41,274 bases of DNA from a virus: the IMG/VR virus record IMGVR_UViG_3300045988_038418, positions 1 through 41,274 of that record, one strand, 5' to 3'. This document shows positions 4,233 through 39,624 of this stretch, one piece after another (the stretch's first letter is position 1; each line of letters begins with the position of its first letter). Both the position numbers and the translations under genes were made by a program. Below the pieces are notes generated by a model. The model did not search any database, was not told the origin of the DNA, and saw nothing but the letters and a program-made list of their open reading frames with translations.

Positions 4233-5132
4233 TTGGCTAGAGCTCCAAATAAAAAAGTTGATAAAGCAAAAAAGTTATATTTGAAGGGCGAGAAGTTAAT
4301 TGATATCGCTAATGAGCTGGAGCTTCCGGAAGGCACCGTCAGAAGGTGGAAAAAAACGTATCAATGGGATAGCGAACGTTCGGAAAATAATAGCGAACGT
4401 TCGGTTAAAACGTCCGTTAAGAAAAAGAAAACCGTTGCAAAAGAAGTTAAACAGGTCATGAAAAACACTGAATTAACCGATAAACAGAGGCTTTTCTGTC
4501 TTCATTACATTAAGTGTTTTAATGCAACGAAGGCATATCAGAAAGCGTATGAATGTAGCTATGAAGTAGCAGCTTCGGCAAGTTATCGAATGTTGGACAA
4601 TGTTGGAATTCGAAATGAAATTCAGCATCTTAAACAGAACCGCTACCAGAGAGAATTTCTTTCCGAAGCAGATATCTTTCAAAAGTACATGGATATCGCC
4701 TTTGCGGATATCACAGATTTCCTTGATTTTGGAACTGAAGAAGTCCCGGTTATGGCATTGTACGGGCCTGTAAAAATCAAAGACCCTGAGACGGGGGAGG
4801 AGAAAATGCTGACAAAGACAGTGAACACGGTATACTTCAAGCCTTCAAGTGAGGTGGATGGTTCTATTCTAGCTGAAGTCAAGCAAGGGAAAGATGGCGC
4901 TAGCATTAAGCTTTCCGAGAGAATGAAGGCTCTTGACTGGCTATCGAAGCATATGAATATAGCTACAGACGAGCAGAAGGCTAGAATCGAGCAGATTCAT
5001 GCACAGACAGAGTTACTCAAGGCGAAAGCGCAGGCGGACGATATTGAAGAGGCTGCCGATGACGGATTTATAGAAGCATTGAAGGGAACCGCAGCGGATG
5101 ATTGGGAGGACGGACCGGATGAAGAGAATTAA
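4233..5132 (+). CDS. terS: Terminase small subunit (N-terminal HTH plus Terminase_2-like domain)
   Basis: The N-terminal segment LIDIANELELPEGTVRRWKKTYQWD is an HTH. LTDKQRLFCLHYIKCFNATKAYQKAY is the Terminase_2 signature. The start is TTG 4233, with a GAGGTG RBS 6 nt upstream. The gene lies directly upstream of terL. Confidence 0.85.
   Translation: MARAPNKKVDKAKKLYLKGEKLIDIANELELPEGTVRRWKKTYQWDSERSENNSERSVKTSVKKKKTVAKEVKQVMKNTELTDKQRLFCLHYIKCFNATKAYQKAYECSYEVAASASYRMLDNVGIRNEIQHLKQNRYQREFLSEADIFQKYMDIAFADITDFLDFGTEEVPVMALYGPVKIKDPETGEEKMLTKTVNTVYFKPSSEVDGSILAEVKQGKDGASIKLSERMKALDWLSKHMNIATDEQKARIEQIHAQTELLKAKAQADDIEEAADDGFIEALKGTAADDWEDGPDEEN
4370..4404. repeat. Two copies of TAGCGAACGTTCGG, each with the 10-bp palindrome CGAACGTTCG. 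Candidate pac-site element inside terS.
   Basis: Exact 14-bp direct repeats at 4370-4383 and 4391-4404, spaced 21 bp start to start. They lie in the linker between the terS HTH and its core domain. Confidence 0.35.
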
Positions 5133-6441
5133 GCAATTCTTCAAATTCCAGCCATTCTCGAAAAAGCAGCGAATGGTTCTTAACTGGTGGACGGACGGAT
5201 CGCCGGTTGAAGATCATGAAGGCATCATAGCAGACGGGGCGATTCGTTCAGGAAAGACGGTGTGCATGTCGCTGTCGTTCGTAATGTGGGCGATGTCGAG
5301 CTTTAACGGGCAGAATTTCGCAATGTGCGGAAAGACGATCGGCTCCTTCCGGAGAAACGTCCTTTTCTGGCTGAAACTGATGCTCAAGTCAAGAGGATAC
5401 AGAGTGACGGATCACCGTGCGGACAATCTTGTCGTAATATCCCGAGGGGATGTGGAGAATAACTTCTACGTCTTCGGCGGTAAAGATGAGCGGTCACAGG
5501 ATCTGATCCAGGGCATCACATTGGCCGGGGTCTTTTTTGATGAAGTGGCTCTGATGCCGGAATCTTTCGTCAATCAGGCGACCGGACGATGCTCTGTGGA
5601 TGGCTCAAAGTATTGGTTCAACTGCAATCCGGACGGTCCGAATCACTGGTTCAAAAAAAACTGGATAGACAACAGAAAAGCCAAGAGGCTGCTATATCTG
5701 CATTTCACGATGGACGATAACCTGAGCCTTACAGAGAAGATTAAGGCTAGATATCGAGCTATGTATGTAGGCATCTTCTATGCAAGATACATAGAGGGAC
5801 GCTGGGCGATGGCAGAGGGTGCGATTTACGACATGTTCGACGAGAATGTGCATGTTATAGATCAGCTTCCGGAGCTGGATGGCCCGTGGTTCATATCGTG
5901 TGACTTTGGTATCCAGAATGCAACTGTATTCCTTTTGTGGCGCAGAAAGAAAGGCACGAATACATGGGTATGCACGAACCAATACCGATACAGTGGACGC
6001 GAGAAGAAGCTACAAAAGTCTGTAAAGCAGCTTATAGACGGCATGGAAGAAACGTTCGGGCTGAGTTCGGACGAATACGACACAGAAAAGATATGCCCTA
6101 GGAACATTATCGTAGACCCTTCTGCAAGCGCGCTAATCGTAGAGCTTAGACAGAGGGGATACAGTGTCAGGAAGGCGAAAAATGATGTCCTGAATGGTAT
6201 CGCAGACGTACAGGTGATGCTTAAGGATGGCCGTCTGCTGTTCCTGAAACGATGCTGTAAGGAGACTATCGAGGAGATACAGGGGTACAGATGGGACGAA
6301 AAGAAAGCCGAGCGAGGAGAGGATGCACCGGTCAAAGAGGCCGACCATTCCTGTGATGCAATTCGATATTTCGTAAAAACAATGAAGCTTGTGAACAGAG
6401 ATGACACGGAGGACGATAATGAATATGAATTCTATCTATAG
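5119..6441 (+). CDS. terL: Terminase large subunit (PBSX/Terminase_3-like)
   Basis: A Walker A motif (GAIRSGKT) is present, with typical terL length and order. ATG 5119 has a GGGAGGA RBS and overlaps the end of terS. Confidence 0.9.
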   Translation: MKRIKQFFKFQPFSKKQRMVLNWWTDGSPVEDHEGIIADGAIRSGKTVCMSLSFVMWAMSSFNGQNFAMCGKTIGSFRRNVLFWLKLMLKSRGYRVTDHRADNLVVISRGDVENNFYVFGGKDERSQDLIQGITLAGVFFDEVALMPESFVNQATGRCSVDGSKYWFNCNPDGPNHWFKKNWIDNRKAKRLLYLHFTMDDNLSLTEKIKARYRAMYVGIFYARYIEGRWAMAEGAIYDMFDENVHVIDQLPELDGPWFISCDFGIQNATVFLLWRRKKGTNTWVCTNQYRYSGREKKLQKSVKQLIDGMEETFGLSSDEYDTEKICPRNIIVDPSASALIVELRQRGYSVRKAKNDVLNGIADVQVMLKDGRLLFLKRCCKETIEEIQGYRWDEKKAERGEDAPVKEADHSCDAIRYFVKTMKLVNRDDTEDDNEYEFYL

Positions 6442-20439: not shown

Positions 20440-21216
20440 ATGATTAGAGGAAAAGTGACCGGACAGGTTCTGCAGCTTGCGAAAAATACGACCGTAAGCG
20501 ACAGCAAAAACTATATATCAGCCAGATTCGTCTTTTCCCTCGACTGGCTTGGTCTGACTAAAACGGTGCATTTCAAGAATGGCGAGAATCAGGCGGATGT
20601 AACCCTTGTGGATGACGGCATCACACAGGACAGAGGAATTGACCTGAGCGCCGGAACATGGGACGTGTGGCTGCATGGGGCAGCTTATAACGAGTCTACA
20701 GGAGAGCTTGAAGAGAGAATTACAACTACTAGCGCAAAGCTTGTAGTCCTTCCGTATCAGACCACAACCGGGGAACCTTTTAGAGGCAATAATGCCAGTG
20801 CGGTTGAAATTGAAGTCGGGAAAGCGGTTGTTGCCGCATCAAAAGCAGAAACGGCCAGAGACGCTGCGGAAGCATCGGCAAATTCCGCTGCCTTTTCCGA
20901 AAAAAATGCTGCATCATCGGCAGCAGAGGTGAAACGGAATAAAGAAGCGGTTGACAAGAATTTTAAATTAACAGAAACAGCGAAGAAAGAAGCGAAGGCC
21001 TGGGCGATCGGTGACAGCGACATTCCTGAGACGGTCGATAACAATGCAAGATTCTATTCGGAAGCAGCGAAGCAGGTTGCAACAAAAAACGGATTCTGTC
21101 ACCTGAGCATTGACGATTCAGGTCATTTGATTCTTGACCGTACGGAAAACATCAAAGACGAATTGAACTTCGAATTAACAGATAGCGGTCATTTGGAGGT
21201 TATATTTAATGATTAG
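20440..21216 (+). CDS. Tail fibre protein (Ala-rich helical C-terminal segment)
   Basis: The segment AETARDAAEASANSAAFSEKNAASSAAEVKRNKEAV is typical of fibre shafts. The gene overlaps the next fibre gene. Confidence 0.5.
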   Translation: MIRGKVTGQVLQLAKNTTVSDSKNYISARFVFSLDWLGLTKTVHFKNGENQADVTLVDDGITQDRGIDLSAGTWDVWLHGAAYNESTGELEERITTTSAKLVVLPYQTTTGEPFRGNNASAVEIEVGKAVVAASKAETARDAAEASANSAAFSEKNAASSAAEVKRNKEAVDKNFKLTETAKKEAKAWAIGDSDIPETVDNNARFYSEAAKQVATKNGFCHLSIDDSGHLILDRTENIKDELNFELTDSGHLEVIFND

Positions 21217-22981
21217 AACAGATTTAGGCATCGCAACGGCCTATGCTGAGGCCGTGAGCAAGGGATACACCGGAACAAGAGACGAATTCGGACAGATGTT
21301 TGCTGATTTCGGAAAAGCAGCTGAGAAGGTCACAGAGGACAAAAAGGCAGTCGAACAGATGAAGTTGTCTGTTGAAGAGACAAAGAGTTCTGTTGATACA
21401 ACGGCGGCTGAATTCGGACAGAATGTCGCAGATAAGAAAGCAGAGGCTAAAGCAGCCATCACAGAGCATGCAAATACGGAAAAAGAATCAGCTACAGCGG
21501 CTATATCTGAAGCGAAAGACGATGCAACAGGCGCGATCACGGAAGCGCAGACATCTGCGACGGATGCAATTGCTTCGGCAAAGGATTCAGCTACTGCTGA
21601 AATCGCAAAAAAGGGGACTGATACGCTTGCGACGATTCCGGAAGATTACACAACGTTAACTGGACAGGTTGGTTCACTAAAGGAATATATAGGTGATTTT
21701 GATAATGAAAAAATCAACAAGAATTTTTTGTACGAAATTGATGGGTCGAATGAACAGTTATCTAGCACGAAAATGATGGATGTGTCCGGAAATGGAGAAA
21801 TCGCAAAAGTAGTTGCTGATTCTGTTTACCGGGATAATCTTATCCTAATTCCTGATATTAAAGAAAATACAGTCAACGGATTGACGTATAGTGTTGTTGA
21901 TGGAATTGTTTCTGTATCAGGAACCGCAAGTACATATACACTAATCAATCTTGGTGTTAATCTTGCGATGATGGACAGAATTAACGGAATCGGATATAAA
22001 ATATTTATATTTGACGGCACTATGCCAACCGGAGTGTCTATTATTCTTGGTATAGCTATAAATGGAAATACAAAAACGATAACCAGTACAGTTCAAGAAA
22101 ACGCATCTACAGGATTAGTTACATACAATAACAAAAATATTGGTGTATCTGTTAACAATGGCACAACAGTGAATTTTAAGTTCGGTGTCGTTATAATTCC
22201 CGTGAATATAATACCTTCTAAATTCTTAAATGGATACAAGTACATTGGTAAATCACTTGACGAGTTGCTATGCTTATCAAATATGTGGGCATTTGGTAAT
22301 GAGGTATCAAAAATATTTTTGAACACAACATATCGATTTAAAAAGAACAATTTATACGGAAAAAGTCTTTTTGTTGCAGGAGATAGCGTTGCATATGGTT
22401 ATGGAAGTAATAGCACATCTTTCGGAGAAATTATCGCTAAAAAGAATAATATGCGTCTTACAAAAGTAGCAATAAGCGGAACTACATTTGCAAAACGTGA
22501 CGGGTTAACAAATAGTATTTTGGAACAAGTAGAGTCTATTGACAAAGAATACGATTATATCATTGTAGAGGGCGGGTTTAACGATTATTTTCAAATGAAC
22601 AATGGAGTATCTATTGGAACAATGCCTAAAAACATGAACTCTAGCAGAGACGATAAAACAACATACGGCGCATTAGATAGTATTTGTTTATGGCTTAAAC
22701 AGAATTATCCTGCAAGTAAGATTTTGTTTGTTGTTCCCCATAAAATAATGACAATAACTGGTGTAATTGACAGTGAGTTTTATCCATATTTGCAAGCAAT
22801 TAGAAATGTATGTGAAAAGTATAGTATTCGTTATGCAGACATTGCCTTAAAAGGTGGATGTACTCCTTTTTATCAATCGTTTAGAGATAAATACTTCGGT
22901 AGTGACGGAATACATCCTAATTTAGACGGATACAAGACTTTTTATGTGCCAGTAATCGAATCTGAAATGGAAATGATGTAA
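21209..22981 (+). CDS. Tail fibre/spike with a C-terminal SGNH (GDSL) hydrolase domain
   Basis: The N-terminal segment is an Ala/Thr-rich helical shaft. All four SGNH blocks are present: FVAGDSVAYG, ISGTT, GGFNDY and DGIHPN. The part from about 21660 onward is visibly more AT-rich. Confidence 0.75.
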   Translation: MIRTDLGIATAYAEAVSKGYTGTRDEFGQMFADFGKAAEKVTEDKKAVEQMKLSVEETKSSVDTTAAEFGQNVADKKAEAKAAITEHANTEKESATAAISEAKDDATGAITEAQTSATDAIASAKDSATAEIAKKGTDTLATIPEDYTTLTGQVGSLKEYIGDFDNEKINKNFLYEIDGSNEQLSSTKMMDVSGNGEIAKVVADSVYRDNLILIPDIKENTVNGLTYSVVDGIVSVSGTASTYTLINLGVNLAMMDRINGIGYKIFIFDGTMPTGVSIILGIAINGNTKTITSTVQENASTGLVTYNNKNIGVSVNNGTTVNFKFGVVIIPVNIIPSKFLNGYKYIGKSLDELLCLSNMWAFGNEVSKIFLNTTYRFKKNNLYGKSLFVAGDSVAYGYGSNSTSFGEIIAKKNNMRLTKVAISGTTFAKRDGLTNSILEQVESIDKEYDYIIVEGGFNDYFQMNNGVSIGTMPKNMNSSRDDKTTYGALDSICLWLKQNYPASKILFVVPHKIMTITGVIDSEFYPYLQAIRNVCEKYSIRYADIALKGGCTPFYQSFRDKYFGSDGIHPNLDGYKTFYVPVIESEMEMM

Positions 22982-23950: not shown

Positions 23951-24718
23951 ATGAGTAAGACGTTTAAACAGAAAGAATGGGGAACACTGCATGGAATTTC
24001 CATGGCTGCTTCTGGCTGTGGCCCTTGCAGTATTGCATCCATCGTTGCCAACCTGGTTAAGGACATTACCCCAAAAAAGGTTGCCGAGTGGCTCTACGCA
24101 AACGGCGATTTCTTTTCATCCGGTACGACCCGTGCCGGCGTAACTGCTGCTTTTGAACATTACGGCTTCGACGTCGTTGGATATTACAAACCAGAACATT
24201 CCGGCGGCACAATCTGGAAAAACGCAATGGCTAAGATGAAGTCATTAAAAGGTGATTGGTGGGCCGTGTTCCTGACGGTCGGAAAGGTCAACGGGGCAAA
24301 GGACAATTTTTGGACATCCGGCGGTCATTACTTAGCCATCACGGACTACAAGGACGGAAAGCTGTATGTTCGTGATTCTGGTGCAAGAAACAACACCGGA
24401 TATTTCAGCCCTGAAAAGCTCAGATACGATACCAACGTCATCTGGATTGTTCAGAAGAAATCAGGCAAAAAGGCTTATACAGGCGAGTTCCCGACTCTTC
24501 CGTCAAAAGGCTATATCGGTGAAGGTGACACTGGATCAGAAGTTAAGAAGGTGCAGCTGTTTCTGAAGTGGTATGGCACATACAAGGACAGAGTAGACGG
24601 AAAATGCCTTGGAAGGACTGTAGCAGCTATTAAGGCGTTTCAGATTGCAGAGGGAGAGACAACTGATCTGAAATTCGGACCATCCTGTTTGAGAAAAGCA
24701 AAAACTGTCAGAAAGTAA
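23951..24718 (+). CDS. Endolysin: papain-fold cysteine peptidase (C39-like) plus a C-terminal PG_binding_1 domain
   Basis: The candidate catalytic Cys is in ASGCGPCS and the candidate His in SGGHYLAI. The C-terminal segment GDTGSEVKKVQLFLKWYG...DGKCLGRTVAAIKAFQ is the PG_binding_1 pattern. Confidence 0.75.
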   Translation: MSKTFKQKEWGTLHGISMAASGCGPCSIASIVANLVKDITPKKVAEWLYANGDFFSSGTTRAGVTAAFEHYGFDVVGYYKPEHSGGTIWKNAMAKMKSLKGDWWAVFLTVGKVNGAKDNFWTSGGHYLAITDYKDGKLYVRDSGARNNTGYFSPEKLRYDTNVIWIVQKKSGKKAYTGEFPTLPSKGYIGEGDTGSEVKKVQLFLKWYGTYKDRVDGKCLGRTVAAIKAFQIAEGETTDLKFGPSCLRKAKTVRK

Positions 24719-25140: not shown

Positions 25141-25181
25141 AATATAGCGTATCTGATTCGTTGGATACGCTATATTTTTTT
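25141..25181 (+). terminator. Rho-independent terminator
   Basis: A 13-bp stem (AATATAGCGTATC / GATACGCTATATT) with a 10-nt loop, followed by a T7 run. Confidence 0.8.
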
Positions 25182-25212
25182 GCTTAAATATACAGTAGAA
25201 AGGGGGATGCCG

Positions 25213-25599
25213 ATGTATAAGCGATACAACCCCAATCCGATAGCAGCGAGAGTCGGCGACTGTACAGTTCGGGCAATCAGTAAGGCGACAGATCAGAGTT
25301 GGCAATACACTTATGTGCAGCTGTGCTTGTACGGTCTGTTAATGTCCGATATGCCGTCATCCAACAGTGTGTGGGGCGCATATCTGTTAGATATAGGATT
25401 TTCAAGGAATATGGTTCCAGACGTATACGGTAAGATATATACCGTCTCAGATTTCGCCAGAGAGCATCAGAAAGGCATCTATATATTAGCCTTATCCGGG
25501 CATGTGGTGGCACTAGTCGACGGTGATTGGTATGACACATGGGATTCCGGGCAAGAAATCCCGCTGTATTATTGGCACAAAAAGGAGGAGAGCGCATGA
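25213..25599 (+). CDS. Hypothetical protein with a Cys/His/Asp arrangement (possible papain-like fold)
   Basis: The motifs are YNPNPIAARVGDCTVRAI, then LSGHVVALVDGDWYDTWDSG. ATG 25213 lies 6 nt after a GGGGGA RBS. Confidence 0.5.
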   Translation: MYKRYNPNPIAARVGDCTVRAISKATDQSWQYTYVQLCLYGLLMSDMPSSNSVWGAYLLDIGFSRNMVPDVYGKIYTVSDFAREHQKGIYILALSGHVVALVDGDWYDTWDSGQEIPLYYWHKKEESA

Positions 25600-26060
25600 A
25601 TTATCCATACGGAAACATGAACATGAATAGTTATTCACAGTATCCGAATTTTGGTGTCGGATATAATCCACCTGTTCCTGATCAGCTGAGTCAGCTTCGG
25701 ATGCAGAACGCATTCAACCAGATGAATCAACCGGTTCAGCAGCAGCCGACCAATCCAGATGAACGGATCTGGGTACAGGGAGAGGGAGCAGCGCAGGCTT
25801 ATCTAGTAGCACCGAACGGATTTGTTCGATTGTGGGACAGCACGGCCCCGGTATTCTACGAAAAGAGAGCCGATCAGACGGGAAAACCGTATATGGAAGT
25901 GTTCGAATACACCCGAAAAGGTGCACAGACTCCGAATCCAGAGCCTAAACGGATGGATGCGGATAATGTTATAGAAAAACAGCTTAAGTCATTAGAAGAG
26001 CGTGTAGGCGTTCTTGAAAAGAGAGGAGCGATGACAAATGATGCAGCAGATTCCGAATAA
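25596..26060 (+). CDS. Hypothetical protein with a Q/N/P-rich low-complexity N-terminus
   Basis: ATGA overlap with the upstream gene. The first ~60 aa are Q/N/P-rich (MNYPYGNMNMNSYSQYPNFGVGYNPPVPDQ...). A globular segment and a short coiled coil follow. Confidence 0.55.
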   Translation: MNYPYGNMNMNSYSQYPNFGVGYNPPVPDQLSQLRMQNAFNQMNQPVQQQPTNPDERIWVQGEGAAQAYLVAPNGFVRLWDSTAPVFYEKRADQTGKPYMEVFEYTRKGAQTPNPEPKRMDADNVIEKQLKSLEERVGVLEKRGAMTNDAADSE

Positions 26061-26235
26061 TCCAATGCAGATGATACAGCAGTTCAATCAGTTCAAAAAC
26101 TCTTTCACGGGAGACCCGAAGCAGGCGGTTATGAACCTTTTGCAAAGTGGTCAAATGAATCAGGATCAGTTGAATCAGCTACAGTCGATGGCAAAGCAGT
26201 TCCAGTCCATCATGGGTGGAATGGAACATAAATGA
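26038..26235 (+). CDS. Small Q-rich hypothetical protein
   Basis: A GAGAGGAG RBS lies 9 nt upstream. It is 65 aa and 17 residues are Gln. Confidence 0.5.
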   Translation: MMQQIPNNPMQMIQQFNQFKNSFTGDPKQAVMNLLQSGQMNQDQLNQLQSMAKQFQSIMGGMEHK

Positions 26236-26282
26236 AAAAATCATGGCCAATGGTTTAATAGATAAAAAAGGAGTGTGTTTGA

Positions 26283-27038
26283 ATGAGCTTAACAACAAGT
26301 GAAATGACCCCTGCCGACTTTGCGGCGGTGACAGGCAATAACAACAATGGAACATGGGGCGACGGCGGTGCGTGGTGGATTATTATCCTTTTCCTCTTCG
26401 TTTTTTGCGGATGGGGCGGCAACGGCTTCGGAGGCAACAGAAACGGTGGCGGAGTAGTAGACGGATACGTCCTGACATCCGACTTCGCGAACATTGAAAG
26501 AAAAATTGACAACGTCAACAATGGCTTGTGCGACGGATTCTACGGACAGGCTCAGCTTGTGAACGGTGTGCAGCAGAATTTGAGCAACGGTTTCATGTCT
26601 GCGGAGATTTCCAGAGCCAACCAGCAGGCCGGACTGATGCAGCAGCTTAATGCTATGCAGATGCAGCAGGCTAATTGCTGCTGTGAGACAAGAGAAGCTA
26701 TTCAGGGCGTGAACTACAACCTTGCACAGCAGTCTTGCGAGACACGACAGAGTGTCAATACAGCCGCAAGAGATATCATCGACAATCAGAACGCCAACGC
26801 AAGAGCCATTCTCGATGCTATGACCGCACAGAGAATCGAAGCGAAGGATGCGAAGATTGCAGAGCAGAGCCAGCAGCTTTTTGCAGCACAGCTTGCAGCA
26901 AGTCAGGCGGCTCAGAATGATACGCTTAAAGCGTACATGACAGGCCAGTTTGCTTACTACAATCCAAGACCTGTTCCGGCATTCCCAGTTCCGGCACCTT
27001 ATCAGTACGGCAACTGTGGGAATGGCTGCGGATGCTAA
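26283..27038 (+). CDS. Membrane protein with a Gly-rich juxtamembrane segment, a Q-rich helical region and Cys clusters
   Basis: The transmembrane segment is WWIIILFLFVFCGW, followed by GGNGFGGNRNGGG. An internal NCCCETR...SCETR pair is present. The C-terminus is YGNCGNGCGC. No family was recognised. Confidence 0.6.
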   Translation: MSLTTSEMTPADFAAVTGNNNNGTWGDGGAWWIIILFLFVFCGWGGNGFGGNRNGGGVVDGYVLTSDFANIERKIDNVNNGLCDGFYGQAQLVNGVQQNLSNGFMSAEISRANQQAGLMQQLNAMQMQQANCCCETREAIQGVNYNLAQQSCETRQSVNTAARDIIDNQNANARAILDAMTAQRIEAKDAKIAEQSQQLFAAQLAASQAAQNDTLKAYMTGQFAYYNPRPVPAFPVPAPYQYGNCGNGCGC

Positions 27039-27106
27039 TTGAATAATGACATAAGGCAGCTTGTCGCATGACGACATGGTCAGCACTCCTCCGCTGATAC
27101 TGCTTA

Positions 27107-27138
27107 AGTGGCGGGGTGTTGCCCTGCCACTTTTTATT
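27107..27138 (+). terminator. Rho-independent terminator
   Basis: A 10-bp stem (AGTGGCGGGG / CCCTGCCACT, one G.U pair) with a 5-nt loop, followed by TTTTTATTT. Confidence 0.7.
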
Positions 27139-27155
27139 TAAAGGAGCGTGAAAAA

Positions 27156-27578
27156 ATGGCAGAATATACAAATTCTAATACAGTTCTAGTCGCCGCTGGC
27201 CAGAACATTCCTCTTACAGAGACAGCGGTCAAAGGTGGATGCGGCATTATTCACAGAGAGGGTGCCGGCATCGTAACACTAAGAGGCACGACGAATCAGT
27301 GCAAGGCCCGCTATAGAGTCAGCTTTGGCGGCAATATCGCTATACCTACAGGCGGCACAGTTGAAGCTATCTCCGTGGCTCTGGCGATTGACGGGGAGCC
27401 TCTTAATTCAGCAACTGCGATCGTCACACCGGCTGCGGTAGAAAACTTTTTCAACGTCTATGTTGCGTCTTATATCGACGTACCTAGAGGGTGCTGCGTG
27501 ACGGTTGCATTAGAGAATGTATCCACAGAGGCTATTAATATCAGCAACGCGAACATGATCGTTGAGCGAGTTGCATAA
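27156..27578 (+). CDS. Beta-rich protein resembling the BclA C-terminal (TNF/C1q-like) exosporium domain
   Basis: It is 140 aa with alternating hydrophobic beta-strand patterns. The C-terminus NANMIVERVA resembles the B. anthracis BclA end ...SASIIIEKVA as recalled from memory. There is no collagen-like region. Confidence 0.45.
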   Translation: MAEYTNSNTVLVAAGQNIPLTETAVKGGCGIIHREGAGIVTLRGTTNQCKARYRVSFGGNIAIPTGGTVEAISVALAIDGEPLNSATAIVTPAAVENFFNVYVASYIDVPRGCCVTVALENVSTEAINISNANMIVERVA

Positions 27579-27591
27579 TGGAGGTGTGAAC

Positions 27592-28008
27592 ATGAACAAA
27601 AATACATTGTATGACCTGAAAGAAATGCTCTGCAAAGAGCTTGATGAGATTGCTAAGAAAGGCGAAATGAGTGCCGGAGACCTTGAGACAGTGCATAAGC
27701 TTACTGATACCGTCAAGAACATTGAAAAAATCATGTATATCGACGACAACGGTTATTCGATGGACGGCGATTGGAGATCATCCGGCACATATGCCCGTGA
27801 TGGAATGCGGATGGACGACCGAGGTATGAGTTATGCGAACAGAGGACGTCACTATGTTCGAGGCCATTATTCCAGGGGAGACGGACGAGAAATGAGTAGA
27901 TGTCGTGACTATCTTTCTGATCAGATCAGAGATATGATGGACCGTGACGATCTCTCTCAGACGGATAGAGCGTCGCTTAAAAGGGCACTGGAAGAATTAC
28001 AGGGATAG
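27592..28008 (+). CDS. Hypothetical protein with a helical N-terminus and an R/G/D/Y-rich middle
   Basis: ATG 27592 follows a GGAGGTG RBS. It is 138 aa with no family recognised. Confidence 0.55.
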   Translation: MNKNTLYDLKEMLCKELDEIAKKGEMSAGDLETVHKLTDTVKNIEKIMYIDDNGYSMDGDWRSSGTYARDGMRMDDRGMSYANRGRHYVRGHYSRGDGREMSRCRDYLSDQIRDMMDRDDLSQTDRASLKRALEELQG

Positions 28009-28011
28009 GCG

Positions 28012-28362
28012 GTGAAAGGCGTGGATTTGAACGAGATTAATGCTGAGATTGCGAAGCTTGAAGCGGGCGGCACAAATTATGCAGTCTGCGAAAAACTGGC
28101 GTGCCTCTATACGGTCCGTGACGGGCTTCAGAATGTAAGAGAGCCGGAACGGACAAGGAATGAATACAGCTATGCTTCAAATCCACGCCAGATAGTCGCA
28201 GACGAGCCTCAGAGCGAATTCTCTCAGGCTGCTTACAGTGTGCCTGTAGATGCGCTTATATCCGTCATGGATGAGCACATGGAAGCGATACGGGCTATAT
28301 ACCCGAAAGAATACAGCGCCATTGTTGAGCGCCTGAAAAACGAAAGAAGGGCGGGAGATTAG
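28012..28362 (+). CDS. Hypothetical protein
   Basis: GTG 28012 lies 4 nt after the upstream stop. TTG 28027 is an alternative start. The gene ends inside a terminator hairpin. Confidence 0.5.
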   Translation: MKGVDLNEINAEIAKLEAGGTNYAVCEKLACLYTVRDGLQNVREPERTRNEYSYASNPRQIVADEPQSEFSQAAYSVPVDALISVMDEHMEAIRAIYPKEYSAIVERLKNERRAGD

Positions 28363-28376
28363 TCCCGTCCTTTTTA
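28349..28376 (+). terminator. Rho-independent terminator at a convergent gene junction
   Basis: The stem GGGCGGGA / TCCCGTCC has one G.U pair and is followed by TTTTTA. It closes the + strand cassette opposite the end of the - strand operon. Confidence 0.65.
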
Positions 28377-28382
28377 TAGTTG

Positions 28383-28745
28383 TTAAGCTCTAACGGCTTC
28401 CCTCATAAGCTTCCAGACACCCTGAGTCATTACTTCTATAAGTTCGCCGTTTGATTCCTCAAGCTGGTTATATCCCTCTTCGAAAGAATCTAAAAGACTG
28501 TCCACGAAATTCTGATCGGAGTAACTGAGAGTTTTATAATCCACCAGTTCCCCGTCGTGGTAAATTTCGATCACTTTTGAAGGGTCAGAATAGTATTTTT
28601 CGCCCTTTGAGGCATCCCCGTTCCACGTCTCTCTTTCTATGAGCTTGCTGTAATCAATCGGTTCTTCCGGTTCCAATTCTTCGGACATTCTTTTTAATGC
28701 CCCAATCATTTTGTCATCTATTTGCATCTTTTCACCATTAGCCAT
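28383..28745 (-). CDS. Acidic hypothetical protein (121 aa), last gene of leftward operon 2
   Basis: The start is the internal Met of the 154-aa track ORF. It lies 1 nt after the upstream TAA, which suggests translational coupling. Confidence 0.55.
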   Translation of the reverse strand: MANGEKMQIDDKMIGALKRMSEELEPEEPIDYSKLIERETWNGDASKGEKYYSDPSKVIEIYHDGELVDYKTLSYSDQNFVDSLLDSFEEGYNQLEESNGELIEVMTQGVWKLMREAVRA

Positions 28746-28746
28746 T

Positions 28747-28977
28747 TTATTTACCCCATCCGTTAAGTGTGCAAGCGTTCCCCATTCCATCTTCCCAACC
28801 ATCGCTGATTGGTTCAAAACCTGCATCCAATCTTTCGATACAGGCATTCATATCATCAACGGTCTCGGGATATACAGTCCCAAGATAATTTCCTTTATAC
28901 ACTTTGAAGCAGTGTACGTTATGGTCGTACTCGCTTTCGTATACTTCGATTCCATTCTCAAATTTCCATTCTTTCAT
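28747..28977 (-). CDS. Small acidic hypothetical protein (76 aa)
   Basis: A GAGGAGG RBS is present and the gene is tightly coupled to its neighbours. A DGWEDGMGN motif is present. No family was recognised. Confidence 0.55.
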   Translation of the reverse strand: MKEWKFENGIEVYESEYDHNVHCFKVYKGNYLGTVYPETVDDMNACIERLDAGFEPISDGWEDGMGNACTLNGWGK

Positions 28978-28980
28978 TTT

Positions 28981-29178
28981 TTATTCCTCCTCTATATTTC
29001 TATATTCTGTAATGAAGTTTTTTTCATCACATTCAGAAAGTATGCCATTAGGTACATACTTCCATTCTCTAGTATATGGAAGAATAGTTCCTCCGAAATA
29101 GGCCTCCGTAACAATTCCGCATCCGACCGCTTCGCGATTATTAACCGCAGTAGTTCTAATTTCGTATTTCATCTTCAT
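28981..29178 (-). CDS. Small hypothetical protein (65 aa), first gene of leftward operon 2
   Basis: An AAGGAGG RBS is present, about 25 nt downstream of the predicted promoter. Confidence 0.55.
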   Translation of the reverse strand: MKMKYEIRTTAVNNREAVGCGIVTEAYFGGTILPYTREWKYVPNGILSECDEKNFITEYRNIEEE

Positions 29179-29201
29179 TTCCTCCTTGGTTTCTCTTCTT
29201 C

Positions 29202-29241
29202 AACTGTCTTTATTATATCATAGTGGACACCACTAGTCAAG
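29202..29241 (-). promoter_or_regulatory. Consensus sigma-70-type promoter (copy 2) with a palindromic operator in the spacer
   Basis: On the - strand: TTGACT (29240-29235), a 17-nt spacer, TATAAT (29217-29212). The spacer contains the palindrome TAGTGG-n3-CCACTA (29221-29235). The 40-bp block matches 30380-30419 at 39 of 40 positions. Confidence 0.7.
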
Positions 29242-29424
29242 CGCTTTTTTGTCCTTTTCTATGATTATTTTACCATCCTCTAAGGTCATCAAAACGCCTC
29301 TGTCTTCTTCAGTGATCCCAAGTGCCCTTACCATGGCAACTGGGATGGAAACGCGGTAGTTTTTTGTGTCTTTGCCGGATGTCCCTCCGGCTTTGTTTAT
29401 CATTATATTTCTATTTACTTTCAT
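29233..29424 (-). CDS. AbrB/MazE/SpoVT-type DNA-binding protein (63 aa)
   Basis: The segment YRVSIPVAMVRALGITEEDRGVLMTLEDGKIIIEK is the swapped-hairpin AbrB-like pattern. ATG 29424 has a GAGGG RBS. Its last codons overlap the -35 and operator of the downstream promoter. Confidence 0.65.
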   Translation of the reverse strand: MKVNRNIMINKAGGTSGKDTKNYRVSIPVAMVRALGITEEDRGVLMTLEDGKIIIEKDKKALD

Positions 29425-29950
29425 CTTTTTTGCCCTCATTATATTTTTTTCTCGCATTGTTCTCTTCGCTCCAAGATAGCAGTATCCAACCTTTGTATTG
29501 AGAATAGCCACGTTTTCTCTTTCCAAGAAAAGTTCTTTTTATATCTATAATTCCTCCATAAAACCTGATAGGTGATGACGGCAAGATCTCCTCATTATCT
29601 CTTGCCCATTTTTTTAAATTGTCGATTTCATACACAACTCCTTCAGGCGATCGTATCACCCAGCTTTTTGCTTGGGTATTTGTCTCAAATCGTCCACTAT
29701 TCGGACTTTTAGAAGCTGCTTCGTGAGCCAAAATGAGCCTTTTGGCTGACGATCTCGTTCTTCCGATTTTGGATCTTTCCAAATGCTCGCAAGCCTTACT
29801 ACATGTTTTCTTCTCGGATGACGGGCTTGCGTAAAATTTTTTCCCACATACTACGCAAGTTTTCATATTTTTTATATATGAAACCCTGCATTCCTGGGAA
29901 CAGTAGTATTTATTTCTACCGGTATCTTTTCCGCAGTTTAAACATTTCAT
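29411..29950 (-). CDS. Zinc-ribbon protein (two CxxC...C..C units) with a NUMOD-like C-terminal segment
   Basis: The zinc-ribbon units are CLNCGK...YCSQEC and CVVCGKKF...CSKAC. KSWVIRSPEGVVYEIDNLKKWARDN resembles DNA-binding modules associated with homing endonucleases. Confidence 0.5.
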   Translation of the reverse strand: MKCLNCGKDTGRNKYYCSQECRVSYIKNMKTCVVCGKKFYASPSSEKKTCSKACEHLERSKIGRTRSSAKRLILAHEAASKSPNSGRFETNTQAKSWVIRSPEGVVYEIDNLKKWARDNEEILPSSPIRFYGGIIDIKRTFLGKRKRGYSQYKGWILLSWSEENNARKKYNEGKKDESK

Positions 29951-29964
29951 AATATATCCCCGGA

Positions 29965-30348
29965 TTAAAACTCATAATTAGCTACGAACCATTTCATTGT
30001 TTCAAAAAAATCACCTTTTGAGAATTCACTTACAATCTGATTGTTGTTATTGCAGTTGATGTAACCAACAGTACGGTTTTTGTAATCAGATACATAAACT
30101 CTTTTGTGACCATATTTTTCCCACATTTTGAAAGTGAGATAGTTGCTTTCGTCGTCATTGTTTGTTCCGCAATTTGGATTACATTCTCCGTTTGCGTCTA
30201 CGATAGCAACTTCGGATTTTCCTTCGAATTTGATCATTGTATGCTTTGCTTCCTCCCATGCTTTTTTGAGGCCAGAAGAAATTGTCATACCCATTTTCTT
30301 AACCAGTTCCCAAGCTCTTTTCATGATTTTTGATAAATTGTATTTCAT
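29965..30348 (-). CDS. Hypothetical protein (127 aa), first gene of leftward operon 1
   Basis: An AAGGAGGAAG RBS is present, about 35 nt downstream of promoter copy 1. Confidence 0.55.
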   Translation of the reverse strand: MKYNLSKIMKRAWELVKKMGMTISSGLKKAWEEAKHTMIKFEGKSEVAIVDANGECNPNCGTNNDDESNYLTFKMWEKYGHKRVYVSDYKNRTVGYINCNNNNQIVSEFSKGDFFETMKWFVANYEF

Positions 30349-30379
30349 AATTTCTTCCTCCTTGAATGTTGTCTTCCTT

Positions 30380-30419
30380 AACTGTCTTTATTATACCATA
30401 GTGGACACCACTAGTCAAG
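30380..30419 (-). promoter_or_regulatory. Consensus sigma-70-type promoter (copy 1) with the same palindromic operator
   Basis: On the - strand: TTGACT (30418-30413), a 17-nt spacer, TATAAT (30395-30390). The operator TAGTGG-n3-CCACTA is at 30399-30413. Confidence 0.7.
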
Positions 30420-30448
30420 GGGTAAAACCAAAAAAATATAAAAATATA

Positions 30449-30490
30449 TACAACATGAGTATGCAGATGAATCCGAATACTCATGATGTA
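30449..30490. repeat. Imperfect 14-bp inverted repeat with a 14-bp spacer just downstream of int. It is either the int terminator or a candidate attP.
   Basis: TACAACATGAGTAT (30449-30462) and ATACTCATGATGTA (30477-30490) are complementary at 13 of 14 positions. On the - strand the hairpin is followed by a T-rich tract. Confidence 0.4.
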
Positions 30491-30502
30491 TATCTGAAAG
30501 CG

Positions 30503-33359: not shown

Positions 33360-33914
33360 TTACTCTTCGATTGTGATTAACTGTGTATCTTTTGCACCGT
33401 CGAAAGAAATCCAGTCAGATACTTCAATGTCTACATCGCTTGTATCCTGCAACTCGAACGGTTCGCAAACGTCAATAGATCCTCCTGGCTGAATATCCTT
33501 CATATAATTTTCATATTCAGGAATTTCATAGTCTATATAAGCCAATTCGTTTTCTACACCGTTCTGGAAGCACTGGATCTGTGCTGAAGCCATAGCGCTT
33601 GTGTTTTCGTCGCCGTTATTCGTGAATGTGTAATAATACAGAAGACATGGATTTCCGTCCATATCCTTTTTGATCTCATGCTTCGAATATGTGATGACAT
33701 ATTTGTCTGTTTCAAAATTGATAGTGCCGTCATCGGCTGCTTCTGTCTCAGGAGCTTCTGTGGTAGCCTCCTTTGTTGTTACAGGAGCTTCTGTTGCTGC
33801 CTCAGTTGCGGCTGGTGCCTGCGTTTCTTTTGGTGCATCTGATGAGCTGCCGCACGCCATGATAGACATAGACATAGCGGCAACCATCATTGCTGCAGTG
33901 ATTTTCTTTTTCAT
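33360..33914 (-). CDS. Lipoprotein (DUF5067/DUF4352-like Ig-fold domain) in the lysogeny module
   Basis: It has a signal peptide with the lipobox SIMA-C, an A/T/E-rich linker, and then KDMDGNPCLLYYYTFTNNGDENTS...FQNGVE...IQPGGS, typical of DUF5067-type lipoproteins. Confidence 0.65.
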   Translation of the reverse strand: MKKKITAAMMVAAMSMSIMACGSSSDAPKETQAPAATEAATEAPVTTKEATTEAPETEAADDGTINFETDKYVITYSKHEIKKDMDGNPCLLYYYTFTNNGDENTSAMASAQIQCFQNGVENELAYIDYEIPEYENYMKDIQPGGSIDVCEPFELQDTSDVDIEVSDWISFDGAKDTQLITIEE

Positions 33915-34371: not shown

Positions 34372-34394
34372 TTCATCACCTCTTTTCTGTTTAT

Positions 34395-34496
34395 ATTATA
34401 TCACCTATAAAATGAAAAATCAACAAAAAACTTTACAGAGTCAAAAATAATTCTTGACATTCTTAACAGAGTAAAGTATAATTATTACAGAGTCAA
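34395..34496. promoter_or_regulatory. Genetic switch: divergent promoters plus three operator repeats
   Basis: Rightward promoter: TTGACA (34454-34459), 17 nt, TATAAT (34477-34482). Leftward promoter on the - strand: TTGATT (34423-34418), 17 nt, TATAAT (34400-34395). Operators: TTACAGAGTCAA at 34433-34444 and 34485-34496, and TTAACAGAGTAAA at 34463-34475. Confidence 0.7.
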
Positions 34497-34530
34497 GAAA
34501 ACACAAACAACAACAAGGAGGAAATAAAAA

Positions 34531-38742: not shown

Positions 38743-39624
38743 ATGGAATTAAGAATTGTACCATATAAGATTCCGGAGAAGATTGAATTCAATTATGAAG
38801 AAATTATACGGGAAATCGAACCCGTTGTTAATGAAAAAGCTAGCATTTATTATTCAGATGAAGATATTCCTGTTGCAAAGAAAGATAGGGCTAAATTTAA
38901 CACCTTTAAAAAAGCAATAAATGATGAAAGAATCCGCATGAAAAAGGAATATATGAAACCTTTTGAAGAATTTGAAGCAAAGGTGAAAGATATCAACGCT
39001 CTTGCAGACAAGGCGGTCATTGCTATTGATAAGCAGATCAAGGAATATGAGGACAATCAGAAGCGTGAGAAGCTGGATAAAATCAAAGCTCTTTGGACGC
39101 AAATGGCTGTTCCTGAAGGTCTGACAATGGACAAAGTTTACGAGGAAAGAATGCTGAATACGTCTTTCAGTATGAAGAAAGTTGAAACATGCTTTGAGCT
39201 TGCTATTTGCAAATTTAACAGAGACATGGCTACACTGGCGGCGTTGCCTGAATTTGGTTTCGAAGCACAGCAGGTATACATTTCTACTTTCGACATCAAT
39301 AAAGCGCTTGCTGAGGGGCAGAGAATGGCACAGATCCAGAGGCAGAAGGCTCAATATGAGGCAGAACAGGCAAGAAGAAAAGCAGAGGAAGAGGCAAAGA
39401 AAGCTGCAGAACAGGTGCCGGTTGAAGTGGTTACAGCTGAAGAGATTGCTCAGTCAAAGCAGGAATATATTGATGCTGCTTCAGCAAATGGTATTCACGT
39501 GATGGATGATCCTTCAAAACAGTGGGTAGGATTCAAGGCGCTTCTGTCAACAGAAGATGCGATTGCACTGCGTGATTTCTTCAAGAGTAGGAATATTCAG
39601 TTTAAAGCATTAGGGGAAAATTAG
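38743..39624 (+). CDS. DUF1351-like protein (recombination-module accessory)
   Basis: The N-terminal segment PEKIEFNYEEI...AKKDRAKFNTFKKAINDERIRMKKEYMKPFEEFEAKVK fits the DUF1351 pattern. It lies between the exonuclease and RecT. Confidence 0.6.
   Translation: MELRIVPYKIPEKIEFNYEEIIREIEPVVNEKASIYYSDEDIPVAKKDRAKFNTFKKAINDERIRMKKEYMKPFEEFEAKVKDINALADKAVIAIDKQIKEYEDNQKREKLDKIKALWTQMAVPEGLTMDKVYEERMLNTSFSMKKVETCFELAICKFNRDMATLAALPEFGFEAQQVYISTFDINKALAEGQRMAQIQRQKAQYEAEQARRKAEEEAKKAAEQVPVEVVTAEEIAQSKQEYIDAASANGIHVMDDPSKQWVGFKALLSTEDAIALRDFFKSRNIQFKALGEN

Follow-up and report, generated by a model that had tools for sequence, protein, structure and literature searches.

What regulates two short leftward operons beside the integrase gene of a gut phage, each beginning with nearly the same strong promoter and the same palindrome, and what would such a pair of operons be for? 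The locus lies in IMG/VR virus record IMGVR_UViG_3300045988_038418, positions 1 to 41,274, and the whole of this stretch of 41,274 nucleotides (nt) was analysed and is referred to as the window; by gene content the window looks like a complete temperate phage genome, and its predicted host family is the Lachnospiraceae of the gut. The answer favoured here, with moderate confidence, is that a temperate Lachnospiraceae phage carries these accessory genes as a self-limiting island, in which AbrB63, a protein of 63 amino acids (aa) with an AbrB-type DNA-binding domain, would repress both promoters (P1 and P2), and whose cargo genes may encode host inhibitors.

Two promoter-operator units head the island

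A 40-nt block present twice on the - strand with 39 of 40 positions matching, as described in an original prediction made from the DNA letters alone, was reproduced by a repeat search, in which the direct repeat comprises 51 nt (29191-29241 and 30369-30419, 47/51 identical) and the similarity extends at 80% via the ribosome-binding site (RBS) to the start codon (29164-29188 and 30340-30364). Each copy is a sigma-A near-consensus promoter that reads TTGACT, 17 nt, TGnTATAAT and holds the palindrome TAGTGG-TGT-CCACTA in its spacer; the TTGACT-17-TATAAT boxes named in that prediction match the consensus at 11 of 12 positions in both copies, with the TG of an extended -10 in addition. Promoters of this quality number only four in the whole 41-kb window (shuffled mean 1.2), the third site of at least 11/12 being the perfect consensus promoter at the cI/cro switch and the fourth lying at 38831 on the - strand. 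The 15-nt palindrome TAGTGGnnnCCACTA is found exactly twice in the window, at 29221-29235 and 30399-30413, one per spacer, and all further matches need 3 mismatches, which is the level expected by chance; the sequence that AbrB63 is predicted to bind is TAGTGGTGTCCACTA. Repeat search, promoter scan and palindrome all support the predicted reading of both blocks as units of promoter and operator, each at the head of a small operon.

The operons are co-directional, with g127-g179-abrB63 read from P1 and then g63/65-g76-g120 from P2, and the full order on the - strand is int, hairpin, P1, g127, g179, abrB63, P2, g65, g76, g120, terminator. The parts of the island are as follows.

30369-30419, - strand: P1 unit, with the -35 box TTGACT at 30418-30413, the operator TAGTGG-TGT-CCACTA at 30413-30399 and TG plus TATAAT at 30395-30390
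29965-30348, - strand: g127, 127 aa, basic, isoelectric point (pI) 8.7, no known function
29411-29950, - strand: g179, 179 aa, basic, pI 9.7, two N-terminal zinc ribbons; its end overlaps the abrB63 start by 14 nt
29233-29424, - strand: abrB63, 63 aa, nothing but a swapped-hairpin DNA-binding domain (AbrB/MazE/SpoVT), predicted to repress P1, its own promoter, and P2
29191-29241, - strand: P2 unit, with the -35 box at 29240-29235, the operator at 29235-29221 and the -10 box at 29217-29212
28981-29178, - strand: g65, 65 aa as an open reading frame (ORF), acidic, pI 4.9
28747-28977, - strand: g76, 76 aa, pI 4.4, no known function
28383-28745, - strand: g120, 120 aa (MANGEK start), pI 4.4, net charge -14
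28344-28375: bidirectional hairpin terminator that separates the island from the convergent + strand genes

Transcription is predicted to start near 30383 from P1, where the conserved initial transcribed block is AAAGACAGTTAAG, and near 29205 from P2. The overlap of P2 with the end of abrB63 was likewise found as described, with the -35 box and the first half-site covering the last codons and the stop (CTT GAC TAG). At the far end of the island, the terminator read as - strand RNA folds at -12.2 kcal/mol (z -3.05) and is followed by a U-rich tail. The operator was also considered as an RNA hairpin, which was rejected, with a folding energy of -6.7 kcal/mol, a z of -0.11 and a position upstream of the predicted start.

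The unit is widespread and travels with an AbrB gene

The duplicated unit is not private to the window but a widespread, multi-copy, portable module, which the original prediction had missed. In gut metagenomes, about 140 loci of related Lachnospiraceae phages and prophages hold 195 palindromic copies, each genome having between one and three, and the register of the palindrome inside the consensus promoter is fixed in 195/195 copies. A search of IMG/VR by the AbrB protein alone returned 53 viral loci, nearly all of which have TTGACTAGTGG(ACA/TGT)CCACTATGnTATAAT one to three times on the strand that encodes the genes; across 93 viral copies, a 41-nt block is conserved from the -35 box to about +13 (…TATAATAAAGACAGTTAAG) and is followed by GGAGG. 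The reverse scan, using only the DNA pattern, returned 47 viral contigs, 45 of which are AbrB contigs, and the remaining two have the promoter match at the edge of the retrieved sequence.

Metagenomes gave the same association from a pattern in which the variable half-site position was left free on both sides. Among 102 promoter matches, 94 were palindromic (25% expected), as were 35 of the 43 distinct 29-mers, and an AbrB gene accompanies the promoter in 28/28 loci that have a palindromic promoter and at least 1.5 kb of flank on each side, compared with 2/8 loci that have a non-palindromic match only. The module is common to two phage lineages of different layout, namely the window's group of about 41 kb, in which the island converges on the late genes, and a group of 50-55 kb, in which DUF4417, terS and terL follow the island on the same strand. 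Relatives were found in GTDB genomes of the Lachnospiraceae genera Fusicatenibacter, Mediterraneibacter and Oliverpabstia; a search of GenBank phages and plasmids gave nothing beyond unannotated contigs from the gut and, in other contexts, distant homologs of AbrB, for example in Clostridium scindens phage phiCs5676-1.

Operator classes and the AbrB loop vary together

The half-sites fall into four symmetric classes, AGTGG (G), ACTGG (C), ATTGG (T) and AATGG (A), and the centre triplet is free, being TGT, ACA, TAA, TTA, GTA, TAC or TAT. Distant AbrB loci (loci are given L numbers) keep the same promoter frame with symmetric operator variants, such as ACTGG-TGT-CCAGT in L005, L053 and L109-L111 and ATTGG-TGT-CCAAT in L112. 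Symmetric classes with a free centre are expected of a symmetric dimer that contacts two 5-bp half-sites one helical turn apart. These apparent four specificities are a further point missing from the original prediction.

On the protein side, the residues that track the operator class lie in the loop after KAGG: at residue 15, all 38 distinct proteins of the G class have T, all 9 of the C class have N or H and the one of the A class has S, and residues 16 and 20 mark the T class. The closest comparison is offered by L187, in which the promoter and leader equal those of the window group over the core from -35 to +22, save for G>A and C>T, one in each half-site, and in which the AbrB protein is that of the window group with T15S. 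This near-isogenic pair, together with the strict symmetry of the changes, is hard to explain without direct recognition of the operator by the protein. Tight co-occurrence and co-variation of operator and protein thus point to the AbrB-type protein as the cognate regulator, in agreement with what had been proposed, and an AbrB63 dimer very probably binds the palindrome and shuts down both P1 and P2, which would make expression of the island self-limiting. As speculation, the four-way split in specificity may reflect selection for orthogonality between co-infecting or resident relatives.

AbrB63 as a probable dedicated regulator

By sequence profile, abrB63 belongs to the AbrB domain family, scoring 28.1 bits against PF04014 (cut-off 24.7, E 2e-6) and 1.8e-17 against phrog_2329, and its homologs carry precomputed PF04014 assignments. 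The family profile matches the AbrB N-domain structures 1Z0R, 2K1N and 1YFB at about 8e-4, and in the same profile search of the PDB it also matches the archaeal plasmid-virus protein C56, not MazE. All members of the family have 58-65 aa and end straight after the DNA-binding domain, without a C-terminal toxin-binding tail, and AbrB63 has an extended GGxSGxxT loop. The gene adjoining abrB varies from locus to locus: it is g179 in the window, a gene for an AP2-like protein in L003, one for an HA-domain protein in L187, and genes for unrelated proteins of 108-127 aa in L005, L053 and L112, and in L160 and L164 no gene stands between promoter and abrB, AbrB being the first product after the promoter. 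The variable neighbours and the bare domain, together with the ParE toxin of L148 (described below), which has its own partner, argue for AbrB63 as a dedicated transcription regulator rather than as part of a toxin-antitoxin pair.

As a separate observation, L003 (3154-4189) encodes a 292-aa protein directly upstream of its regular 63-aa AbrB gene, which, as read by eye, joins zinc ribbons and an AP2-like segment to a further AbrB-like domain, a divergent one, at the C-terminus.

Cargo proteins of the window

The products of operon 1 are all basic (AbrB63 has a pI of 9.5). Among the cargo, g127 is the most widely conserved partner, with a family of 387 protein clusters, all of them unnamed. 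Its N-terminal 35 aa (MKYNLSKIMKRAWELVKKMGMTISSGLKKAWEEAK) are nearly invariant and form two similar amphipathic helices (MKKYNLSKIMKRAWELVKKAGMTISSGLKKAWEEAK); the protein sequence is almost invariant here and third codon positions drift, so the constraint lies at the protein level. This N-terminus is fused to at least three different C-terminal parts, L053, L111 and L112 being among the loci concerned. For g179, the Pfam matches to DUF2116 and DZR_2 are both weak; phrog_1271 (HNH endonuclease) is matched at 9e-13 by the N-terminus against the middle of the PHROG, and residues 75-123 match the PDB entry 9KJA 'HNH endonuclease' at 4e-6 and resemble the DNA-binding regions of homing endonucleases. 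The protein may descend from a homing endonuclease that has degenerated and been retained for DNA binding; its homolog in L110 sits after AbrB.

Operon 2 encodes three acidic proteins, of which the original prediction had called at least two markedly so, and the pI values of 4.9, 4.4 and 4.4 bear this out. The gene content otherwise proved to be as described, save that the last ORF has 120 rather than 121 aa and that, for the supposed 65-aa ORF, the second ATG (29172) is the most likely start, giving 63 aa (MKYEI...), because the RBS spacing is then proper and public gene calls use this start. No family match was obtained for g65 in Pfam, PHROGs or NCBIfam, and the gene is present or absent among close relatives; g76 is the first gene behind P2 in L002.

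The g120 protein belongs to a thin and divergent family of acidic proteins of 82-120 aa (P0089-P0098) with the motif DSFE(D/E)GYNxLEE.(D/N)G. Its close homologs form a shallow set, to which a search of the full library with a hidden Markov model (HMM) added a distant family of 82-97 aa, whose members read DSFEDGYNxLEE.DG..YEV. A first AlphaFold2 (AF2) model had a predicted local distance difference test (pLDDT) score of 51, which was too poor for use; the model from the deeper alignment reached 82, and exceeded 90 over residues 50-120, with four short strands, one helix and a three-stranded C-terminal sheet. The structure prediction that the original prediction had called for was thus achieved for g120, confidently over residues 50-120, and a Foldseek search against the PDB yielded no significant match (best E 0.32, template-modelling score below 0.3), so that g120 is apparently an acidic protein of unmatched fold in this model.

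AcrIIA4, the Cas9 inhibitor of a Listeria prophage, was examined as a relative of g120, which is likewise small and very acidic. The two have a local motif in common, F(E/K)xG(Y/W)NQ, and g120 gives sub-threshold AcrIIA4 matches over the same segment (PF24304, 14.0 bits against a cut-off of 27, E 0.066; NF033946, 16.7 against 40, E 0.0055). The candidate was rejected: with the AcrIIA4 reference sequence verified against PDB 5VZL_C, hhalign gave 1-2% probability for both shallow and deep family alignments, the family profile retrieved no AcrIIA4 from the PDB, Foldseek returned no AcrIIA4 entry, and the modelled fold, beta-rich after a helix, has no match.

As a side observation, the distant g120 family member in L054 adjoins an SNF2 helicase gene and a PAPS-reductase-like gene.

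Turnover of cargo behind a constant unit

Behind the 195 palindromic promoters stand 30 unrelated families of first genes, mostly of 47-140 aa with a pI of 4.1-5.2. In relatives whose AbrB is 94-97% identical to that of the window, the genes behind P2 already differ: g120 alone in L001, g76 first in L002, and other small acidic genes in L003 and L230. Because such close relatives differ here, the cassettes appear to turn over rapidly around a stable promoter unit and regulator. Of about 25 cargo proteins encoded by relatives, almost none matched Pfam, PHROGs with a function, NCBIfam, PADLOC or PDB sequences, and the exceptions with a known family are DUF4417, ADP_ribosyl_GH, ParE and HA. For instance, L160 (643-1690) and L164 (1523-2571) carry an ATTGG-class unit, then AbrB, then a 271-aa ADP-ribosylglycohydrolase (PF03747, 2e-60) whose best NCBIfam match is the ADP-ribosylarginine hydrolase Tri1, and the cassette lies just downstream of the C-terminus of a head protein with an ADP-ribosyltransferase exoenzyme domain. 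Similarly, on the reverse strand of L148 (271-995) the unit drives an 86-aa ParE-family toxin, a 68-aa acidic partner and then AbrB, the toxin-antitoxin pair being, by its position, cargo of the module.

Genes like g127 stand first in AbrB-regulated islands of other phages, and they also head islands with other regulators and other palindromes at the same promoter position. In L113 the promoter reads TTGACA-CACCACCAAATTGGTGG-TATTAT with genes for helix-turn-helix (HTH) proteins downstream, and L117 has four copies of CACTATTTTTAGTG and a divergent HTH gene; in both, the first gene is g127-like. The design of promoter, spacer and operator thus seems to be a general one, of which the AbrB version is one implementation.

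Relation to the CI switch and the attachment site

The cI/cro switch of the window (34372-34530) uses a different set of sequences. Three direct copies of a TTACAGAGTCAA-like repeat lie at 34433, 34463 and 34485, and they flank or overlap the promoter that matches the consensus perfectly, TTGACA-17-TATAAT (34454-34482, + strand), which lies just past the cI-like gene; these repeats are likely the CI/Cro operator set, unrelated to the AbrB palindrome. The TAGTGG palindrome was considered as a CI site and rejected, as the cI/cro region has other repeats and no such palindrome. Because the switch uses different operators, P1 and P2 probably escape control by CI, and they may give self-limited expression in lysogens, a point that the original prediction had not raised.

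The ground between the island and the integrase holds two features.

30446-30493, - strand: inverted repeat with 23-nt arms, then a T-run, between the int stop codon and P1
30503-32008, - strand: int, encoding a large serine recombinase and immediately preceding the island, with which it shares the strand

The int product has Resolvase PF00239, Recombinase PF07508 and Zn_ribbon_recom PF13408 in this order, all above cut-off, which identifies a large serine recombinase. The inverted repeat folds at -22.5 kcal/mol (z -5.4), ends in a U-run and is conserved in L001-L003; it could be an int terminator that insulates P1, the phage attachment site (attP) of the serine integrase, or both, the attP reading being by analogy with the 50-55 kb relatives. 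No integrated form of the window phage was found: 8/8 public contigs displayed (of 20) have int beside P1, which is the circular or attP arrangement, and one public contig of this phage has 41,276 nt.

Both forms are available for the 50-55 kb relatives, in which the first promoter is preceded either by int (circular) or by a truncated host sigG gene (prophage), and the two forms share one sequence from about 140 nt ahead of the first promoter onwards. With this layout, no transcription unit comes before the island at that end of the prophage, and the earlier proposal that it lies near a prophage end holds in relatives at this distance. Insertion into sigG was seen in L013, L017, L021, L023, L027, L031, L039, L042 and L052 (first ~350 nt); the junction follows ...KFSTYAVP, and the fragment is matched best by the SigG equivalog model (1.3e-43). 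This sporulation sigma-factor gene of the host thus looks disrupted unless the prophage excises, because the phage side gives only a short out-of-context tail. As for the earlier placement of the island between the lysis genes and int, it does adjoin int and the attachment site, but about 3.6 kb of + strand genes (25180-28362) separate it from the endolysin gene.

Proposed mechanism and alternative explanations

In the proposed mechanism, the portable unit comprises an A/T-rich upstream stretch, TTGACT, a 17-nt spacer with TAGTGG-nnn-CCACTA, TGnTATAAT, a 5' leader and a GGAGG RBS. Host sigma-A RNA polymerase would fire P1 and P2 upon DNA entry with no help from the phage, as suggested by the near-consensus sequence; no activator should be needed because the promoter is of consensus type with the optimal 17-nt spacer. 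AbrB63, made from the last gene of operon 1, would then occupy the palindrome between -35 and -10 of both promoters as a dimer and occlude the polymerase, a step with comparative support, and because of this position it should repress. A burst of expression followed by shut-off would result, and in a lysogen a low, autoregulated expression would be expected, the CI operators being different. The genes g127, g179, g63/65, g76 and g120 would be an interchangeable payload of mostly small, acidic, cytoplasmic proteins, and the conserved unit of about 75 nt would offer joints for homologous recombination, so that different cassettes could come to stand behind the same promoter. By analogy, it is proposed tentatively that the cargo consists mainly of inhibitors of host functions, especially of defence systems, made in a burst on entry.

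Several points weigh against this account. The window's six proteins matched no anti-defence, defence or toxin family above threshold in Pfam, PHROGs, NCBIfam, PADLOC or the PDB, and the anti-defence function that the original prediction had attached to the small proteins finds no known anti-defence family behind it, the g120/AcrIIA4 lead having failed both profile and fold tests. Moreover, g127 and g179 are basic rather than acidic, g179 is DNA-binder-like and could be a second regulator, and some cargo elsewhere (ParE) does not obviously have a counter-defence role. The co-variation of operator and AbrB is partly confounded by shared descent. Lastly, the island escapes CI by sequence and could equally be a 'moron' expressed in the lysogen to the benefit of the host.

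This last possibility, though rather unlikely, is the alternative that survives best: expression set by AbrB in the prophage would serve the lysogen (by superinfection exclusion, by defending it against other phages, or by acting on host physiology, sporulation included) rather than the infecting phage. In relatives, the first promoter points inward from a position about 140 nt within the end of the prophage, P1 and P2 are without CI-type operators, so that CI should not silence them, and negative autoregulation gives steady expression. Furthermore, one relative carries a ParE toxin pair as cargo, relatives of the 50-55 kb group insert into sigG, and phage abrB-like genes have been proposed as sporulation modulators (PMC10075063). 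However, no PADLOC defence match was obtained, and reading of the cargo, for which no predictor was run, made evident no signal peptides or membrane proteins of the kind typical of exclusion factors; tiny acidic cargo fits inhibitors better than effectors, and a consensus promoter with a repressor on the same transcript is the early-burst design of anti-CRISPR (acr) and anti-CRISPR-associated (aca) loci and of plasmid establishment regulons (PMC8708921, PMC13551039). Service to the lysogen and host takeover on entry are not exclusive.

It is improbable that the palindrome is bound by another factor, such as g179, a 206-aa or 129-aa HTH protein or a host regulator (for example the host AbrB), or that it is a recombination or structural DNA element, with a different role for AbrB63. 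The repeated unit does clearly mark cassette boundaries, and g179-like or other DNA-binding proteins (AP2-like, HA-domain) are often encoded just upstream of AbrB, but g179 and the HTH genes are absent from most operator-bearing loci and AbrB is the only constant partner. Against such readings stand also the shift of AbrB loop residues with operator class, including the near-isogenic L187 pair, the palindrome register that is fixed in 195 copies inside a consensus promoter, and the different CI-type repeats.

The antitoxin role that the original prediction had offered as an alternative, in which AbrB63 would be a MazE/VapB-type protein that neutralises a neighbouring toxin and autoregulates its operon, is very improbable: PF04014 is named for MazE, PrlF and MazE are weak NCBIfam matches of abrB63, type II systems typically have a palindrome in their own promoter and ParE shares the operon in L148, but the bare domain lacks a toxin-neutralising extension, its profile finds the AbrB N-domain and C56 rather than MazE, its neighbours vary with no conserved adjacent toxin gene, no toxin domain occurs in the window (Pfam, NCBIfam, PADLOC), the L148 ParE has its own 68-aa partner between ParE and AbrB, and the same operator governs a second and sometimes a third promoter.

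Relation to known systems and significance

The island on the preferred reading, that of an AbrB-repressed set of accessory genes, resembles several known systems. As the original prediction had noted, the architecture is that of acr-aca loci, with a strong promoter holding an inverted-repeat operator and a regulator gene downstream of the cargo in the same operon, and this arrangement is conserved in 195 copies. As in acr-aca loci, small, fast-evolving and often acidic genes come first, a small DNA-binding autorepressor comes last, and the setting is an accessory region of temperate phages; control of two operons also has a precedent in the ribbon-helix-helix (RHH) regulator Aca14, which controls two operons including a neighbouring one (PMC13551039). 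Unlike in acr-aca loci, the regulator is of the AbrB/SpoVT swapped-hairpin type rather than HTH (Aca1-13) or RHH (Aca14), the window cargo includes no known Acr or clear homolog, and a genome may hold up to three repeats of the promoter-operator unit, each a conserved start to its cassette. Since the island has no Acr and no Aca of any known family, it is not assigned to acr-aca. A September 2026 survey lists Aca families of the HTH type plus one RHH family (Aca14) with AbrB/SpoVT unmentioned (PMC13551039), and a text search of the literature found no bacterial-phage regulator of AbrB type for such islands.

The establishment regulon of the conjugative plasmid p576 (pLS20 clade II) offers another parallel, in which the RHH autorepressor Reg576 controls its own and several further strong promoters via repeated sequences, so that anti-restriction and other establishment genes are expressed transiently on cell entry (PMC8708921). 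One small autorepressor, several strong promoters and a repeated regulatory sequence are common to both. The p576 system differs in its plasmid setting, its RHH fold and its direct heptamer repeats beside the -35 box, as opposed to a spacer palindrome, and p576 cargo includes a recognisable anti-restriction gene whereas the phage window cargo does not. In archaeal rudiviruses and lipothrixviruses, consensus early regulatory sequences occur together with Aca8, and the motif was used successfully to predict anti-defence genes (PMC11065993). There too a shared promoter and regulatory sequence precedes many small unrelated genes (terminally located in archaeal viruses), but the promoters are of the BRE/TATA type, the regulator is a winged HTH protein and the genes lie at linear genome termini.

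By sequence profile, AbrB63 is of the same fold family as the N-terminal domain of Bacillus subtilis AbrB and as C68 and C56, and C68 of a Sulfolobus plasmid-virus is a domain-only AbrB-like protein that binds the promoter region of its own gene (PMC5569661). In Bacillus subtilis, AbrB tetramerises through a C-terminal domain and its sites show no clear consensus; the phage protein, in contrast, is domain-only, has the extended GGxSGxxT loop and is paired with a sharply defined 5+3+5 palindrome.

It is put forward as a doubtful extension that AbrB-fold proteins are an unrecognised class of Aca-like repressors, which together with the portable cassette mark a large store of genes, hardly any of them characterised, for counter-defence or host takeover in the temperate phages that infect Lachnospiraceae of the human gut, with at least 30 families of first genes. 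If the proposed mechanism holds, AbrB/SpoVT would be the third DNA-binding fold among regulators of phage accessory or anti-defence islands, and the search handle TTGAC-N-AxTGG-NNN-CCAx'T-N4-TAnnnT plus an AbrB gene of about 60 aa would lead to dozens of candidate families of host inhibitors. To our knowledge, almost no phage-host conflict genes are known in the Lachnospiraceae, a dominant and poorly tractable gut group. Moreover, four natural operator/repressor pairs, one of which differs by a single residue and one symmetric base pair, would provide a system for the study of DNA recognition by swapped-hairpin proteins, as well as orthogonal and very compact repressor-promoter parts for Firmicutes. 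With four orthogonal specificities, a resident prophage repressor may silence the island of an incoming relative in advance, thereby adding an immunity layer over the anti-defence genes. The regulatory part is solid and usable as a discovery handle, and the cargo role is proposed by analogy.

Genome setting

The rest of the window is arranged as in the following rows.

5098-6441: terL
up to ~23 kb: structural genes
21209-22981: late protein of 590 aa with a C-terminal GDSL/SGNH lipase-acylhydrolase domain
23951-24718: endolysin
25180-28362, + strand: five genes with no assigned function
33360-33914, lysogeny strand: DUF5067 protein, between the cI-like repressor and a second HTH gene

Rfam and tRNA scans of the window gave no matches. 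Beyond int come, in order, an HTH protein, the DUF5067 protein, the cI-like HTH protein and the rightward early genes; surface or exclusion proteins expressed from the prophage are frequent in the slot that the DUF5067 gene occupies. Among the late genes, the 590-aa GDSL/SGNH protein (21209-22981) may be a tail-associated esterase that acts on the host surface.

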